Source: an uncultured Devosia sp.
Lineage (GTDB): Bacteria; Pseudomonadota; Alphaproteobacteria; Rhizobiales; Devosiaceae
NCBI GenBank assembly: GCA_965650545.1
Contig: CBFGPB010000001.1
Location: 1-40,698 of the forward strand
Direction of reading: 5' to 3'
DNA: 40,698 nucleotides
A program made the translations under genes and the position numbers. How positions within the stretch are numbered: position 1 is the first letter of the stretch; the number at the start of each line of letters is the position of its first letter. This document shows positions 33,126 through 40,698 of this stretch, piece after piece. The notes below the pieces were generated by a model. The model was not told the origin of the DNA. It searched no databases and worked only from the letters and a program-made list of their open reading frames with translations.

Positions 33126-33788
33126 TCAGGCCGCCGGCGCATCCGTCATGGCGAGCACACGCTCGACCAGGGCAACGATCTTTGGATTGATCCCGCGCCA
33201 GAATTCGACACGGGCGGCATCGGCGGCGGCATCGGCGGCGGCATAGGCGGCGGCATAGGCGGCACGGGCGGCGGCACGGGCGGCGGCATCGGCGGCGGCA
33301 TAGGCGGCGGCATAGGCGGCGGCATCGGCGGCGGCATAGGCGGCGGCCAGCAGAGCCTCGCGCGCGTGAGCCGCACTCGTCGCATCGGTGATTTCGGGCA
33401 GGGCCTCGAGCTGCTCGGGCCACCCGTTTATTCCGGCCGCACGCAGTGCTGCGGGCGCGAAAATGCGCGCGGCACTGTCCGCGAGCGCATAGGCGCGACG
33501 CACCTGAGCGTCACGCGAGACCACTGAACCCGTTATTTTGGGGATCAGTGGCAGCATGATTTCCGTGCGCAATTCGTCGGGCAGGGCGTCGTTCCAGGCG
33601 CGCATGAAAGCGCCCACGATCTGGCAGACGCAGTCGGGCCGGTCCGACCATTGTTCACCGGCGACATAGCTCACCGCCTCCATCACACACATGCCCTTGT
33701 CCGGGCCGGCATGGCCGCCCCGATCGAGCTTGGTGATTTCAGCGAGGCGGGCTGGGTTGAGGGCGATCTGGGTTTCGGCAGGCGTCAT
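33126..33788 (-). CDS. Hypothetical phage protein with AAA[Y/D/R] repeats
   Basis: CVMEAVSYVAGEQWSDRPDCVC N-terminal domain plus an Ala-rich repeat. Confidence 0.75.
   Translation of the reverse strand: MTPAETQIALNPARLAEITKLDRGGHAGPDKGMCVMEAVSYVAGEQWSDRPDCVCQIVGAFMRAWNDALPDELRTEIMLPLIPKITGSVVSRDAQVRRAYALADSAARIFAPAALRAAGINGWPEQLEALPEITDATSAAHAREALLAAAYAAADAAAYAAAYAAADAAARAAARAAYAAAYAAADAAADAARVEFWRGINPKIVALVERVLAMTDAPAA
33212..33347. repeat. Imperfect 12-bp tandem repeat (GGCGGCGGCAT[A/C])
   Basis: About 11 units, in frame. Confidence 0.9.
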
Positions 33789-33847
33789 GGCAGGACTCCA
33801 CAAGCGGGGGTTGAGGTGGCAGACTGAGGGGAAAGGGGGAGGGACTT

Positions 33848-34475: not shown

Positions 34476-34514
34476 GCTTCATATGAAAAATTATGATTTG
34501 GGTAATCGTGTCAA
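34476..34514 (-). promoter_or_regulatory. Leftward (cro) promoter/operator
   Basis: TTGACA (34514-34509), TAATTT, and palindrome TTCATATGAA at 34478-34487. Confidence 0.6.
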
Positions 34515-34555
34515 TAGGACGTGGCGCGGCGTGTTTGTATGGAGTAGCGCAGCCT

Positions 34556-35200
34556 ATGCTCCGGGTCGTGAGCACCACCGAACCGACATCCCTGCGCAGA
34601 CGGCAGCTCGCCTGGCTTCAGGCGATGCTCGATTTTCGCATGTGGAATGTCACCCGCATGGCACGCGAAGCCGGGGTCAGCCAGTCCACTCTGGCCAAAT
34701 TTCTCAATGATCCCGAGAACATCGCCCAGCTCTCCACCAATACTGTGGAAAAGCTGGCGACCGCCGGCGGCATCCGTCCTTACGAGACCACCCCGACCAT
34801 GCACCCGCGCGGCCTTTCCGACCGGGAAGCTGAGCGCTTCGAAGGGTTTAACGACAACCCGGCCTTCTCCAAATTGATCGGGGCGCTTGCCGCTGGAAAC
34901 TCCGTGGTTCCTTGGGTTTTGAACACAAGGGCGCTTGAAGTCTTCGGCTATCTCCCGGGCGACGTGCTCATGGTGGATCTCAATGCCACCCCGCGCGATG
35001 GGGACGTGGTCTGCGCCCAGCTCTATGACCGGAATGGGGAAGCCGAGACGGTTTTTCGCATCCTTGAACACCCCTTCCTGGTAGCCGCCACGCTCGACCG
35101 GGCGACCATCAAGCCACTCCTGGTCAACAACGACACCGTGGTGGTCCGCGGCGTCGTCACCAGCTCGCACCGCCCCAGGCTGACGCAGCTGGCCTCGTAG
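34556..35200 (+). CDS. cI: CI-like repressor (HTH + degenerate S24 domain)
   Basis: VTRMAREAGVSQSTLAKF HTH; YLPGDVLMVD..P.DGDVVCA..VRGVV S24 fold. Confidence 0.85.
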   Translation: MLRVVSTTEPTSLRRRQLAWLQAMLDFRMWNVTRMAREAGVSQSTLAKFLNDPENIAQLSTNTVEKLATAGGIRPYETTPTMHPRGLSDREAERFEGFNDNPAFSKLIGALAAGNSVVPWVLNTRALEVFGYLPGDVLMVDLNATPRDGDVVCAQLYDRNGEAETVFRILEHPFLVAATLDRATIKPLLVNNDTVVVRGVVTSSHRPRLTQLAS

Positions 35201-35362: not shown

Positions 35363-35692
35363 ATGGATGGGGTGGCCCATCGGCTCCTGGAGCCGGACAA
35401 CCTGATCAAGTTCAACCTGGACGGCTCGATGACCTGCAGCGCAGGCCAGGTCGCCCACCTGCTCGGTCTTTCCGAGCGCATGTTCAACCGGCAGCGCGCC
35501 GAACTCAAGGCGGCCGGCTTCCCCGACAAGCTGCCGGGGGTCAACAAATGGTCCCGCCCGGCCGTGGTGGCCTGGATCAGCTCCAATGGCCAGACCACCG
35601 TCGCCACCCCGCGCGGCGCCGGCATCGGCGATCCCGACGTGGAAGCCATCGCTGCCGACCTCGAGGCCGACTATGGCAGGAGCGCGGCATGA
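35363..35692 (+). CDS. Excisionase/AlpA-like winged HTH
   Basis: SAGQVAHLLGLSERMF..GFP....KWSRPAVVAWI. Confidence 0.75.
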   Translation: MDGVAHRLLEPDNLIKFNLDGSMTCSAGQVAHLLGLSERMFNRQRAELKAAGFPDKLPGVNKWSRPAVVAWISSNGQTTVATPRGAGIGDPDVEAIAADLEADYGRSAA

Positions 35693-36616: not shown

Positions 36617-37873
36617 ATGGGCAAGATCACCGTTCAAATCCCCCTCGTCACCTGGCGCGATGGCCGGCCCCGCTTCTCCCCGGGCCCGCGCCTGCGCAAG
36701 GCCCCGTTCAATTTCAAGGGCGAGGATCTGCGCCATGGCCGCACCGGCCCCTGGTTCACCCTCGACCAGGCCATCGCCTGGAGCCAGGAGCGGCTAAAGC
36801 TCATCGCCAGCCTCGAGGGCGCCACGCCCAAAGAGGCGCGACAGATCCGCGACGGCGCCGTTGGCGACACCAATGGCCAGCTCTTCGAGCGCTTCTTTTC
36901 CTCGCCTCGCATGAAGGGCAAGGAGGAGCGCCAGGGCAAGAAGGTCCGCGCGCCCCTGGCCGACAACACCGTCAGGAACTATCGCGGCGGCGCCAACCTG
37001 GTCGAGCGGCTGGACAATGGCCGCATCTGGCATGCGCCGGCGCTCGCCACCACGCCCCGGGTCTGGGCCGGGGTGTTTGACCGGATCGAGATCGAAAGCG
37101 GCCTTGCCAATGCCCGCAAGGCGCGCTCGGCCGTCTCGGCCATGTTCACCTGGGCGCGGGCCAATGGGCGCTTTAAGGCGCCGCACCCGATCGCAGCCAT
37201 CGAGGAGCGCCTGCCCACGCTCGAGGCGCGCGTCCGCTTCGGCTCCGTCACCGAAATCGAGCACCTGGTGCGCGCGGCCGACATGCTCGGCCGCCCGGAG
37301 ATCGGCGACGCCATCATGCTCGGCGTCTGGACCGGCCAGCGCCAGTCCGACCGGCTTGCCCTCATCGATGGGCAGGAAACCAGCGACGGCATCCTCTTCC
37401 GCCAGGACAAGAAGCGCGGCCAGCCGCTGCTGATCCCGCCCAGCCCGCAGCTGCGTGCCCGTCTGCTCGCCATCCGCATCCGCCGCAAGGACTGGCCGGT
37501 CGACTTCCGCGAAATCATCATCGACGAGCGCGCCAGGGCGCCCTTCAAGCGCGACTGGTACAACCACACCTTTGCCCGCGTCCGCGCCTTCGCCGCTACC
37601 GGCAAGGGCAAGCACGAGCTCACCGGCCGCCCGGTCGAGATCACGCCCATGCCCTCCCTAGCCGATCTGCGCGACCAGGACCTGCGCGACACCGCCGTCA
37701 CCTGGCTGGCCCTTGCCGGCTGCACCGTGCCCCAGATCGCCAGCATCACCGGGCACTCCCTGGGCACGATCGACACCGTCCTCAAACACTATCTGGGCAT
37801 GCACCCCGAGCTGGCCCGCTCGGCCATTGCCGGGCTGGTCGCCTGGTTCGAAAGCCAGGAGACAGGCAAATGA
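36617..37873 (+). CDS. int: Tyrosine integrase
   Basis: TGQRQSD (Arg), QDK (Lys), DLRDT, IASITGH, HY catalytic motifs. Confidence 0.92.
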   Translation: MGKITVQIPLVTWRDGRPRFSPGPRLRKAPFNFKGEDLRHGRTGPWFTLDQAIAWSQERLKLIASLEGATPKEARQIRDGAVGDTNGQLFERFFSSPRMKGKEERQGKKVRAPLADNTVRNYRGGANLVERLDNGRIWHAPALATTPRVWAGVFDRIEIESGLANARKARSAVSAMFTWARANGRFKAPHPIAAIEERLPTLEARVRFGSVTEIEHLVRAADMLGRPEIGDAIMLGVWTGQRQSDRLALIDGQETSDGILFRQDKKRGQPLLIPPSPQLRARLLAIRIRRKDWPVDFREIIIDERARAPFKRDWYNHTFARVRAFAATGKGKHELTGRPVEITPMPSLADLRDQDLRDTAVTWLALAGCTVPQIASITGHSLGTIDTVLKHYLGMHPELARSAIAGLVAWFESQETGK

Positions 37874-39070: not shown

Positions 39071-39469
39071 TCACTTCTTCTTGCAGGCGCCTATCTCTGG
39101 CCCGAACGCGTCCCACGCATCTTCCTGTCCGTAAAACGTGTCGAAGGGGCTCATTTCCGAAGGCCAGAGCCAATGGTCTTTTGGCACAAACTCCGCAGCC
39201 GTTTGCGCATTCAGGGCACGAATATAGTCAGCACGCACGACAGCCCTTGCCGCGTCTATTGCCCTTGTGGAGCAGCAGCCTGTTTCACACCAGTCCCACC
39301 GCCTGGTGAATTCCTCTTGCGATTTTGCCAGCGTCACGCAGGCTGGCAAGTGCGGCTGGCGCTCTGGCTGGCAAATGCCCGGCGTGTCCATCTCCACCCA
39401 GTCGAGCATCTCCAGCGCTGCTGTCGGAGACGCCATCAGCATCATGGCGCTGATCACCCAAAATCTCAT
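39071..39469 (-). CDS. Secreted Cys-rich protein (moron)
   Basis: Signal peptide MRFWVISAMMLMASPTAA, six Cys, lower GC, opposite strand. Confidence 0.65.
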   Translation of the reverse strand: MRFWVISAMMLMASPTAALEMLDWVEMDTPGICQPERQPHLPACVTLAKSQEEFTRRWDWCETGCCSTRAIDAARAVVRADYIRALNAQTAAEFVPKDHWLWPSEMSPFDTFYGQEDAWDAFGPEIGACKKK

Positions 39470-39472
39470 CTG

Positions 39473-39587
39473 TTGACACCTTCCCCAAACGCGCGCAGTC
39501 TTTCATCGCTTCGCAGAGATGTGAAGTCCGGAATGGAAGCCGGTTGCAGAGGCGCCCGACGCGCCACGCTCTCGTGAGCGCGTTTTT
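39473..39587 (+). promoter_or_regulatory. Promoter and c4-a1b1-type leader with terminator
   Basis: TTGACA-N17-CAGTCT; hairpin CTTCGCA..TGTGAAG; TGGAAG (39534) and GCAGAGG (39546) target boxes; ACGCTC-tcgt-GAGCG + TTTTT. Confidence 0.75.
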
Positions 39588-39590
39588 CTA

Positions 39591-39662
39591 TGGTCGGGCG
39601 TAGTGGGAGCGCGCAAGCGCTGCCGGTCCTCTGCCGGTCTTCCAACCCGCTACGCCTGGCCG
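39591..39662 (+). ncRNA. c4: C4-type antisense RNA (P1 c4 / P4 CI family)
   Basis: Closing stem GGTCGGGCGTAGTGGG/CCCGCTACGCCTGGCC, GCAA-loop hairpin, CCGG-TCCTCTG-CCGG hairpin, single-stranded CTTCCAA; complementary boxes both upstream and downstream. Confidence 0.85.
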
Positions 39663-39707
39663 CCCTTTTGGAAGGGGGCGGTCGGTCTCAGTTCAGAGGA
39701 TCGACCC

Positions 39708-39935
39708 ATGACCAAAGACCCATTCGACATACTCGACGACGCCATTGCCCACGCCAATGACGTGACCCGTCTCATGTCCTACCTGCAGGACGTATCCTCA
39801 ATGGAGGATCGCTGGGCTAACCGCGAGGGCGAAATGCGCCTCGTACAGGACCTCACCCGCCAGCTGCACCGCGCCCGCCGCGCCTTCGACTTCGCCTTCA
39901 AGCTGAAAGCCGCCAATGACCGGAGGGCGTCATGA
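39708..39935 (+). CDS. Small C4-regulated protein (icd/kil position)
   Basis: Its RBS (CAGAGGA) is the downstream C4 target box. Confidence 0.7.
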   Translation: MTKDPFDILDDAIAHANDVTRLMSYLQDVSSMEDRWANREGEMRLVQDLTRQLHRARRAFDFAFKLKAANDRRAS

Positions 39936-40465
39936 CCCACGGCGTTAAGTACTTTGTCTGGCGCGACGGCAGACCCCGCTGGTCTCCGGGCGCCAACACG
40001 CGTGCGAAGGGGTTCAAAGGGCAGGACCTGAAAGACGCCGACGGGGACTGGCTCACCATGCCGGAGGCCTTGAAGGCCGCTCACGATCTGAACCTGGCTG
40101 CCGGCATCATTTCAGAATTGCCGACCTTGATCGACACGCCCCATGTGTCCAGCGCCGCCGCACGCCGCAAGGGCTACGTCTACTTTGTGTTGGTCGCCGA
40201 GAGGGTGAAGATCGGCTTCACAAGCAACCCCCAGAACCGACTGGGCAACCTGCAGGTGGGGCTATACGAGACAATCGACCTTTACGTGGCTGTGCCTGGC
40301 ACCCAATGGGACGAGCACCAGGTGCACGACACGTTGGCCAGACACCGCCTGAAGGGCGAGTGGTTCGAAGCATGCCAGCCGGTCATGAACCTCCTTCTGC
40401 GGTCGGTCAAAGCCCGCCGAATTGTGCTGGGCAAGACCGCTATTCACATCGATTTCAAACGGTGA
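39932..40465 (+). CDS. Integrase-N-like domain fused to a T5orf172/GIY-YIG domain
   Basis: WRDGRPR.SPG..FKG.DL..G.W.T shared with Int; GYVYFV..VKIGFT.NP.NRL..LQ...E...H......L.GEWF. Confidence 0.8.
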   Translation: MTHGVKYFVWRDGRPRWSPGANTRAKGFKGQDLKDADGDWLTMPEALKAAHDLNLAAGIISELPTLIDTPHVSSAAARRKGYVYFVLVAERVKIGFTSNPQNRLGNLQVGLYETIDLYVAVPGTQWDEHQVHDTLARHRLKGEWFEACQPVMNLLLRSVKARRIVLGKTAIHIDFKR

Positions 40466-40488
40466 ACATTCGCAGAACCAGACGCCCT

Positions 40489-40576
40489 CGTCGCTTGTGC
40501 GACCATGCGACGGGGGTGAAACGAGAACGATTTTGTACGATGGACCCGTCGCACGCCGTCGCACGTCGCATCGCAC
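40489..40576. repeat. GTCGC(A) direct/inverted repeats, candidate integrase arm-type sites
   Basis: CGTCGCAC at 40547 and 40557, CGTCGCA at 40564, TCGCAC at 40571, inverted TGCGAC at 40498 and 40506. Confidence 0.55.
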
Positions 40577-40604
40577 AGTGCCATTTTGTTCCGGCATTCC
40601 GGGC

Positions 40605-40633
40605 TTGCAAACCACTGCCCCGCTTGCTATCTC
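40605..40633 (+). promoter_or_regulatory. Sigma70-type promoter in front of the tRNA half in attP
   Basis: TTGCAA-N17-TATCTC ending 10 nt before tRNA position 1. Confidence 0.65.
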
Positions 40634-40643
40634 GCGCTACGAT

Positions 40644-40698
40644 GGGGCTGTAGCTCAGTTGGGAGAGCGCGTCGTTCGCAATGATCGGCTCCCCTTTT
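40644..40698. repeat. Second copy of the terminal repeat (= 1-55)
   Basis: Exact match to 1-55. Confidence 0.9.

Follow-up and report, generated by a model that had tools for sequence, protein, structure and literature searches.

A predicted GIY-YIG nuclease with an integrase-type head encoded beside the attachment-site arms of a temperate phage

The window, the whole stretch of 40,698 nucleotides that was analysed, encodes beside its phage attachment site a small protein in which an integrase-type N-terminal head is joined to a T5orf172/GIY-YIG nuclease domain. The open reading frame (39932-40465, forward strand, with the stop ending at 40465) specifies 177 residues. We give about an even chance to the reading that this fusion is an att-arm-guided nuclease that cuts related phages in their att region, its gene spreading through homing or marker exclusion. 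New here are a code that links one head residue to the arm motif, four co-varying C4 switches and several types of head.

The window comprises the complete circular contig of a temperate phage, with 55 nt common to its two ends. Its junction was identified as attP because of this end repeat, the first 41 nt of which are identical to the 5' part of the host tRNA-Ala(CGC) gene (G000 C222). The right end reads, on the forward strand, as a repressor-like gene (34493-35200, with an HTH and a UmuD/S24-like part), an HTH gene of the xis type (35363-35692, weak matches), two small genes and the integrase, followed by further small genes, a reverse-strand gene (39071-39469), a C4 RNA, a 75-aa ORF, the fusion gene, arm-like repeats and the core (Table 1). 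Arm-like hexamers start at 40469 (TTCGCA), 40490 (GTCGCT), 40498, 40506, 40548, 40558, 40565 and 40570, and exact GTCGCA on either strand occurs five times in 40466-40644 against 0.08 copies expected from the window average. The original prediction that the gene ends about 25 bp from these repeats was borne out by the GTCGCT copy, 25 bp past the stop, the TTCGCA copy lying closer still. Its figure of 2.8 kb to the true integrase is correct as the distance from integrase to att core, whereas the integrase and the fusion gene are 2.06 kb apart.

Table 1. Features of the right end of the window.
Feature	Position	Strand	Basis or remark
Tyrosine integrase, 418 aa	36617..37873	+	PHROG 1 integrase, E 1e-22
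Integrase N-terminal ~60 aa, predicted arm-binding domain (position of the whole gene)	36617..37873	+	Ser after WRDGRPRF motif
TTGACA, possible -35 box of c4 operon promoter	39473..39478	+	By eye
Upstream C4 target sites b1 (TGGAAG, 39534) and a1 (GCAGAGG, 39546)	39534..39552	+	Complementary to C4 loops
C4 antisense RNA	39586..39667	+	Rfam RF01695, 66.3 bits (gathering score 45)
Downstream C4 target sites b2 (TTGGAAG, 39668) and a2 (CAGAGGA, 39694)	39668..39700	+	Complementarity
75-aa ORF, icd position	39708..39935	+	Stop overlaps fusion start (ATGA)
Fusion protein, integrase-type N-terminal head, residues 1-60	39932..40111	+	Ser18, predicted arm-specificity residue
Fusion protein, T5orf172/MUG113 GIY-YIG domain, residues ~79-160, and variable tail	40166..40465	+	Y84, K93, R103, E128, H132, E143
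GTCGCA-type repeat cluster, both orientations, predicted integrase arm sites of attP	40469..40575	.	Sequence repeats
attP core	40644..40684	+	First 41 nt of host tRNA-Ala(CGC); at 1-41 again through circular overlap

Several other features of the phage were observed. The attP holds the 5' half of tRNA-Ala(CGC) (window 40605-40684 and 1-41), unlike the usual 3' part, and in the integrated state an intact tRNA would rely on upstream phage DNA. A possible promoter (TTGCAA, 17 nt, TATCTC) was seen by eye 5' of the tRNA fragment, and the consensus promoter scan called none there. The reverse-strand gene at 39071-39469 encodes 132 residues with a signal-peptide-like start and several Cys, faces the early operon just upstream of c4 and had no family match; it is possibly a lysogenic-conversion or exclusion gene. 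A 12-nt tandem repeat at 33201-33374 encodes runs of AAADA/AAAYA in the reverse-strand ORF 33126-33803, and a poly-Pro frame is open on the same strand of this repeat region.

The head of the fusion resembles integrase N-termini in sequence and in predicted fold. An alignment with the start of the phage's own integrase had been claimed earlier and held up: residues 1-64 gave 25/68 identity (E 2e-9), and in a tblastn search of the whole 2.84-Mb assembly with the same residues the window integrase was the sole other significant match (E 4e-7; the next was 0.32). Profile-profile comparison of 13 fusion proteins with 91 integrase N-termini joined the two groups over 59 columns (P=99.8%, E 1.8e-29). 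AlphaFold models of the fusion head and the integrase head had the same order of elements, and arm-binding domains ranked highest among the N-domain matches of both with modest scores, namely the lambda and HPI arm-binding domains for the fusion head (Z 4.0 and 3.9) and lambda Int, lambda IntDBD and the HPI arm-binding domain, as ranks 1-3, for the integrase (Z 4.7, 4.1 and 4.0). AP2/GCC-box domains were also among the fold matches (Z 2.8-3.5). Foldseek returned no match at E<=0.001 for the full fusion model, a PDB sequence search with the integrase N-domain profile returned unrelated weak rows only, and neither an HTH or excisionase match nor a PADLOC call was obtained for the fusion protein (P0001). 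Linker residues 66-77, with pLDDT under 50 in the model, are predicted to be disordered. The motif residues of the head were conserved and under purifying selection.

A simple history of the head was rejected. The window head is no recent copy of the phage's own integrase, which ranked 116 of 133, and with the window included this explanation failed for five of nine loci, in which the own integrase ranked 39, 41, 58, 112 and 116 of 133. Only the heads of L001 and L098 ranked their own integrase first (1/133).

A T5orf172/GIY-YIG domain stands in place of the recombinase core, as had been proposed. The C-terminal part scored above the cut-off with both MUG113 (PF13455, 33.7 bits against 22.3) and T5orf172 (PF10544, 26.4 against 20), and its top four fold matches were GIY-YIG domains (Z 4.5-5.5, rmsd 2.7-3.4, 61-66 residues). 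Residues Y84, K93, G95, R103, E128, E143, W144 and F145 were invariant in 75/75 aligned homologues and H132 was present in 73. Among 98 further fusion proteins outside the alignment, R was found in 98, the Y..K.G motif in 97 and EWF in 96, the two proteins without EWF being short and apparently cut off. E143, from its position, is the presumed metal ligand. Y84, K93 and R103 aligned with Tyr63, Lys73 and Arg84 of Hpy188I in a weak match (E 0.075), and the helix-1 Tyr/His present in many GIY-YIG enzymes is missing. In the sole close pair, L098 and L099, dN/dS was ~0.03 in both domains, and dS was similar to that of the neighbouring int (0.35 against 0.26). Such a ratio shows selection but not for which role, and it fits a domesticated function equally well.

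Three functions had been put forward for the protein, a decoy or directionality factor, a nuclease and an antirepressor, and the invariant catalytic set favours the nuclease, its activity being a prediction. A non-cutting factor that competes with Int for arm sites, with the GIY-YIG part merely adding DNA affinity, would agree with a cognate arm specificity, with co-expression with int and with the two broken copies among 18 (L044 and L099), in which a stop at or before the catalytic Glu leaves the head intact. We hold such a factor to be highly improbable, since it fits poorly with catalytic residues that stay unchanged in more than 170 proteins with unconserved linkers and tails, and since the xis-type HTH gene (weak matches) already lies upstream of int.

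The specificity of the head appears to be readable from one residue. The arm-code set was drawn from 129 integrase loci (L003-L208); the RTCnnA motif was callable in 40, none of them a fusion locus, and the other 89 gave no arm call or were excluded because of too little downstream DNA, no clear repeat, another head type or a fusion. In these integrase-only loci the residue after PR[W/F] predicted the arm motif: E went with GTCGGA (14/16), V or I with GTCTCA (7/9), Q, S or N with GTCGCA (5/7), L, T or F with GTCACA (6/7) and H with GTCCCA (1/1). Mutual information was 1.78 bits, a value reached by none of 10000 permutations and the highest excess of 14 positions, among loci in which kin are not independent. 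The residue before W in WRDGRPR integrases also carried a signal for the arm motif.

The fusion proteins followed the same code. Their residue agreed with the arms of the carrier in 4/4 clean calls (S/GC in the window and L044, V/TC in L133 and I/TC in L145) and in 7/7 when L001 (E), L002 (V) and L131 (Q) were read by eye, the strict arm caller returning CG, not GG, for L001 and nothing for L002 or L131. If loci are independent, four matches are expected by chance in less than 1% of cases, the class frequencies being 25-29% among 48 fusion proteins. The GC class was found in only one of the ten nearest non-cognate integrases of the window and of L044, yet both heads have S. Because the specificity residue thus matches the carrier's own arms against scaffold similarity, the fusion head, read from its sequence, seems tuned to the arm class of its carrier. 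The counter-example is L097, whose head comes from a different family than its own integrase. The idea of an effector addressed to arm sites is supported as a prediction by profiles, by modest fold matches and by the residue-arm match, with this one locus against it; the narrower idea that the architecture belongs to the window's integrase family fails, both at L097 and through the other integrase heads that occur.

Genomic context was compared at 18 distinct loci with DNA (the window, L001, L002, L044, L097, L098, L099, L100, L131, L133, L145, L217, L221, L222, L223, L224, L226 and L227). All 18 had a tyrosine integrase in the same element, which in L100, L131 and L223 lay at the other end of the record. 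In ten loci the start of the fusion gene coincides with the int stop or follows it closely. In five others a structured-RNA and small-ORF cassette lies between int and the fusion gene, and in three (L100, L222 and L223) the gene seems to be on the far side of att relative to int, its 3' end pointing away from the arms. Downstream of the gene a tRNA-type att core was found within ~180 nt in 10 of the 15 int-side loci, in another four the record stops at the gene, and L224 has no tRNA core but an AT-rich stretch that resembles att. The gene remains beside the arms even where 0.4-2 kb separate it from int, and the first arm copy lay -67 to +33 nt from the stop in 10/10 loci examined, the motifs being chosen by eye. 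One contig (run X4) has the same int 3' end, C4 cassette, gene start and core as the window. The reading frame passes through the arm repeats in L001 (10491-10558, where it stops inside the tRNA core), L097 (8524-8585), L217 (10112-10141) and L226 (6355-6408), and the tail was therefore probably recruited from att DNA.

The presence of the gene is patchy. Among type-1 integrase loci with a located core the fusion was found in four of 49 and was absent from 45, and even this fraction likely overstates the carriage rate because the loci were gathered with fusion-derived patterns. These data bear on whether the nuclease has been domesticated at the phage's own att, where a nick beside its own arms, once the C4 switch opens, would prevent (re)integration, promote excision or initiate recombination-dependent replication. 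A specificity residue that follows the carrier's arms, the two heads that are closest to their own integrase, the ten int-coupled genes and the low dN/dS of the L098/L099 pair are consistent with such a role. We nevertheless regard domestication as unlikely: absence from 45 of 49 loci, two broken copies of 18 and the non-cognate L097 are the pattern of an accessory and not of a core gene. Decay, patchy presence, a fixed place beside the arms and a head that reads the arm class of its carrier suit a gene that would cut the att regions of relatives and enter them during their repair.

The fusion gene of the window lies in a cassette whose layout, by its sequence elements, appears to be that of P1 c4-icd-ant, with the fusion gene in the 'ant' slot. 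Fold and complementarity placed the antisense elements of C4 at 39628 (a', CCTCTGC) and 39639 (b', CTTCCAA). The a2 site overlies a Shine-Dalgarno-like GAGGA 5' of the ATG at 39708, and 68 of 20000 flank shuffles reached the same number of hexamers matched both upstream and downstream of C4. Translational coupling of the 75-aa ORF and the fusion gene is predicted because the stop of one overlaps the start of the other. The ORF had no family match, some searches using the longer 39603 frame, and the consensus promoter scan called no promoter for c4. In L002, L131 and L145 the C4 loops have different sequences and their targets differ correspondingly, giving co-variation in four loci including the window. 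C4 would, by inference, repress the operon in the lysogen.

The original prediction of C4 control and of the 'ant' slot stands for this phage, given the RF01695 match, the target sites and L193, where an ORF between C4 and the att arms was read by eye as Bro-N-like. It does not extend to the family: C4 precedes only four of the 18 loci (the window, L002, L131 and L145; five with L133), and ten are coupled straight to int, which makes the C4 cassette one of two expression settings common in the family. The upstream RNA of L131 (101-176) had weak IsrK and C4 scores and that of L145 (7661-7745) a weak sRNA-Xcc1 score; both have full C4-type target pairs despite these weak Rfam scores and may be diverged C4-like switches. 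The upstream RNA of L133 (7590-7790) had no Rfam match, C4 included. Two similar small icd-position ORFs (L218:3180-3395 and L100:1-255) lie at opposite ends of one provirus record.

Position in an ant slot raises the possibility of a functional antirepressor, by which a superinfecting phage with a different C4 would derepress the resident, either by binding its repressor or through att DNA damage and SOS. Besides the place behind C4 and an icd-like ORF, the Bro-N-like ORF in the same slot of L193, C4 loops that differ between phages and the HTH and UmuD/S24-like parts of the window repressor are in keeping with this possibility. The protein itself has no antirepressor-family domain (no Bro-N, ANT, KilA-N or Rha match in Pfam, PHROG or NCBIfam), ten of the 18 loci are coupled to int without a C4 cassette, and the SOS route would still require the activity proposed for an arm-guided nuclease. 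An antirepressor is thus, in our estimate, improbable.

Fusions of this kind were detected well beyond the window and form a family of over 100 clusters. With a single sequence as query there were 14 matches, the query included, and ten of the others were full-length fusions. With a profile there were 212, and 79 of the 125 proteins examined scored for both domains. Among 50%-identity representatives 127 clusters matched at E<=1e-30, and 98 of 109 new proteins combined an integrase-type head with the nuclease. Members came from Rhizobium, Aminobacter, Mesorhizobium, Methylobacterium, Devosia, Rhodopseudomonas and Ochrobactrum, and the head types matched different integrase families, designated WRDGRPR (the window), GYWxP, DRHG and a fourth found in P0087 and the L097 integrase. 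Matches in the phage GenBank collection were confined to the nuclease part (13 records, none at 80% cover), and a type-2 query gave one nuclease-only match each in phages and plasmids. Neither 400 class genomes nor 400 order genomes had a full-length fusion besides the window, and one of 242 family genomes did. None of the 242 other family genomes had the window integrase at E<=1e-40, and they yielded no gene-less close relative, empty allele or conversion tract. Single-protein scans with P0025 and P0058 found no locus. One 116-aa protein (P0114) has the head without a nuclease and may be a cut-off integrase, and P0214, P0217, P0220 and P0222 join the nuclease to further N-terminal heads.

With 78,671 clusters at E<=0.001, T5orf172 is a very common domain that is fused to many heads, and on a tree of the nuclease domain the head types of the fusions were intermixed. 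This was a quick tree that cannot count origins because only 12 of 160 branches were well supported and several rows were half-filled. Abundance and intermixing would be expected if T5orf172 were a passenger that recombines with nearby DNA-binding genes at the recombination-prone prophage end, the specificity of the head mattering little. This explanation is very doubtful in view of the conserved head motif under purifying selection and of a specificity residue that matches local arms where scaffold similarity predicts otherwise; moreover, standalone T5orf172 matches mostly had no integrase in the DNA examined around them.

T5orf172 was also found joined to excisionase-like HTH heads, in L230 (5506-6336), L242 (5785-6246) and L258 (5668-6243), where the genes sit just upstream of the integrase, and in proteins P0113 and P0123, which gave weak TIGR01764 matches. 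Judged by sequence, these probably represent the parallel capture of a second att-binding domain. A wider view, which we put forward tentatively, is that of a family of att-homing endonucleases, selfish GIY-YIG genes of alphaproteobacterial temperate phages that capture integrase and excisionase-like heads. Under this view at least four integrase head types would have been taken up in repeated captures, one residue would go on matching the arm motif at each locus, and related prophages would have their integration module cut and converted.

For the arm-guided nuclease itself the following course of events is proposed. The integrase-type head would bind the GTCGCA arm repeats and tether the GIY-YIG domain, which would nick or cut beside the arms; its likely targets are related phages or prophages whose arms have the same motif. 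Pairing of C4 with a2/b2 would keep the small ORF untranslated in the lysogen and the coupled nuclease silent, and expression would be permitted in early infection or where the C4 encountered has a different specificity; at int-coupled loci the nuclease would be made together with Int. If a rival's att region, once cut, were repaired with the carrier as template, the gene would be copied into it, perhaps along with the att-int module. Self-cleavage needs explaining because the head matches the carrier's own arms, which Int requires kept; these may escape through a missing cleavage motif next to the arms, occupancy by Int, or timing. Cutting of rivals and homing use the same chemistry, so a single judgement, evenly poised, covers both. 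The three loci of 18 in which the gene seems to lie across att, the non-cognate head of L097, the absent helix-1 Tyr/His and fold scores of only Z 4-5 count against the arm-guided reading, as do the match of the head to its carrier's own arms, the absence of a gene-less close relative among the 242 family genomes, an arm code drawn from 40 of 129 partly related loci, and the strict arm calls for L001, L002 and L131.

If this reading is true, phages in conflict target one another's attachment arms, and some of the mosaic exchange of int-att modules would be explained. From the residue-to-arm code, binding can be predicted for both integrases and nucleases, and in vitro tests are easy with a two-domain nuclease so small and with a code that can be read. 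If the wider att-homing view is true, a 55-residue head with a one-residue arm code could re-aim a 177-residue nuclease.

The titles and abstracts covered here yielded no description of an integrase-head T5orf172 fusion; the gene tables of PMC10448857 could hold one. In the parts of the published accounts drawn on here, the nearest system is Odn (Gp88) of vibriophage ICP1, a T5orf172 protein with a borrowed N-terminal head that is a proven site-specific nuclease and that cuts DNA while keeping the catalytic Arg and Glu without the helix-1 His/Tyr (PMC8263062). Its RepA_N-T5orf172 relatives are covered elsewhere (bioRxiv 2023.03.23.533998; PMC10448857). The fusion likewise keeps Arg and Glu, lacks the helix-1 His/Tyr and joins T5orf172 to a borrowed DNA-binding domain that recognises, by prediction, short repeats. 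In contrast to Odn, its head is of the integrase arm-binding type and not RepA_N, the predicted target is att arms and not a replication origin, and the carrier is temperate, has the same repeats itself and encodes the fusion beside its predicted binding sites. If the arm-guided reading is true, Odn-type borrowed specificity extends from replication origins to site-specific recombination sites.

Among other nucleases, T4 SegG and the T5orf172 homing endonucleases of ICP1 are free-standing, and the T5orf172 heads described there are mostly Zn-finger (CapR, DUF723, DUF4397) or RepA_N (PMC10448857, as far as that account is used here). I-BmoI follows an anchor-and-tether model, and monomeric GIY-YIG homing endonucleases nick each strand in turn (PMC3664794). 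The fusion shares with the free-standing T5orf172/GIY-YIG enzymes an anchor, a flexible linker and a nuclease, as well as patchy, sometimes broken genes with shuffled heads; it differs in its integrase-type head, and its homing is a proposal from sequence. HNH-AP2 (IPA-HNH; PMC10448857) also joins a nuclease to a three-stranded-sheet DNA-binding head, with another nuclease fold and domain order, whereas the fusion head is related in sequence to integrases of the same phage group. Hpy188I is an active GIY-YIG restriction endonuclease with Lys in place of the YIG tyrosine (PMC3045582), a replacement it shares with the fusion; its specificity comes from the nuclease fold and it has an extra helix-1 Tyr. 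The agreement of its Tyr, Lys and Arg with those of the fusion is that of the weak alignment given above.

The cassette of the window resembles the immI operon of P1 and P7, in whose a/b target-site layout C4 has an upstream and a downstream pair of targets. That operon, c4-icd-ant, specifies C4, Icd and Ant, as partially drawn from its published account (PMC8201110). C4, target pairs on both sides, a small coupled ORF and then a cargo gene are found in both; in the window the cargo is a nuclease fusion without an Ant-family domain, and most members of its family have no cassette. By analogy, then, the fusion would work like Odn and the free-standing homing endonucleases, yet it is no Odn, having no RepA_N head, and homing is what we propose for it.
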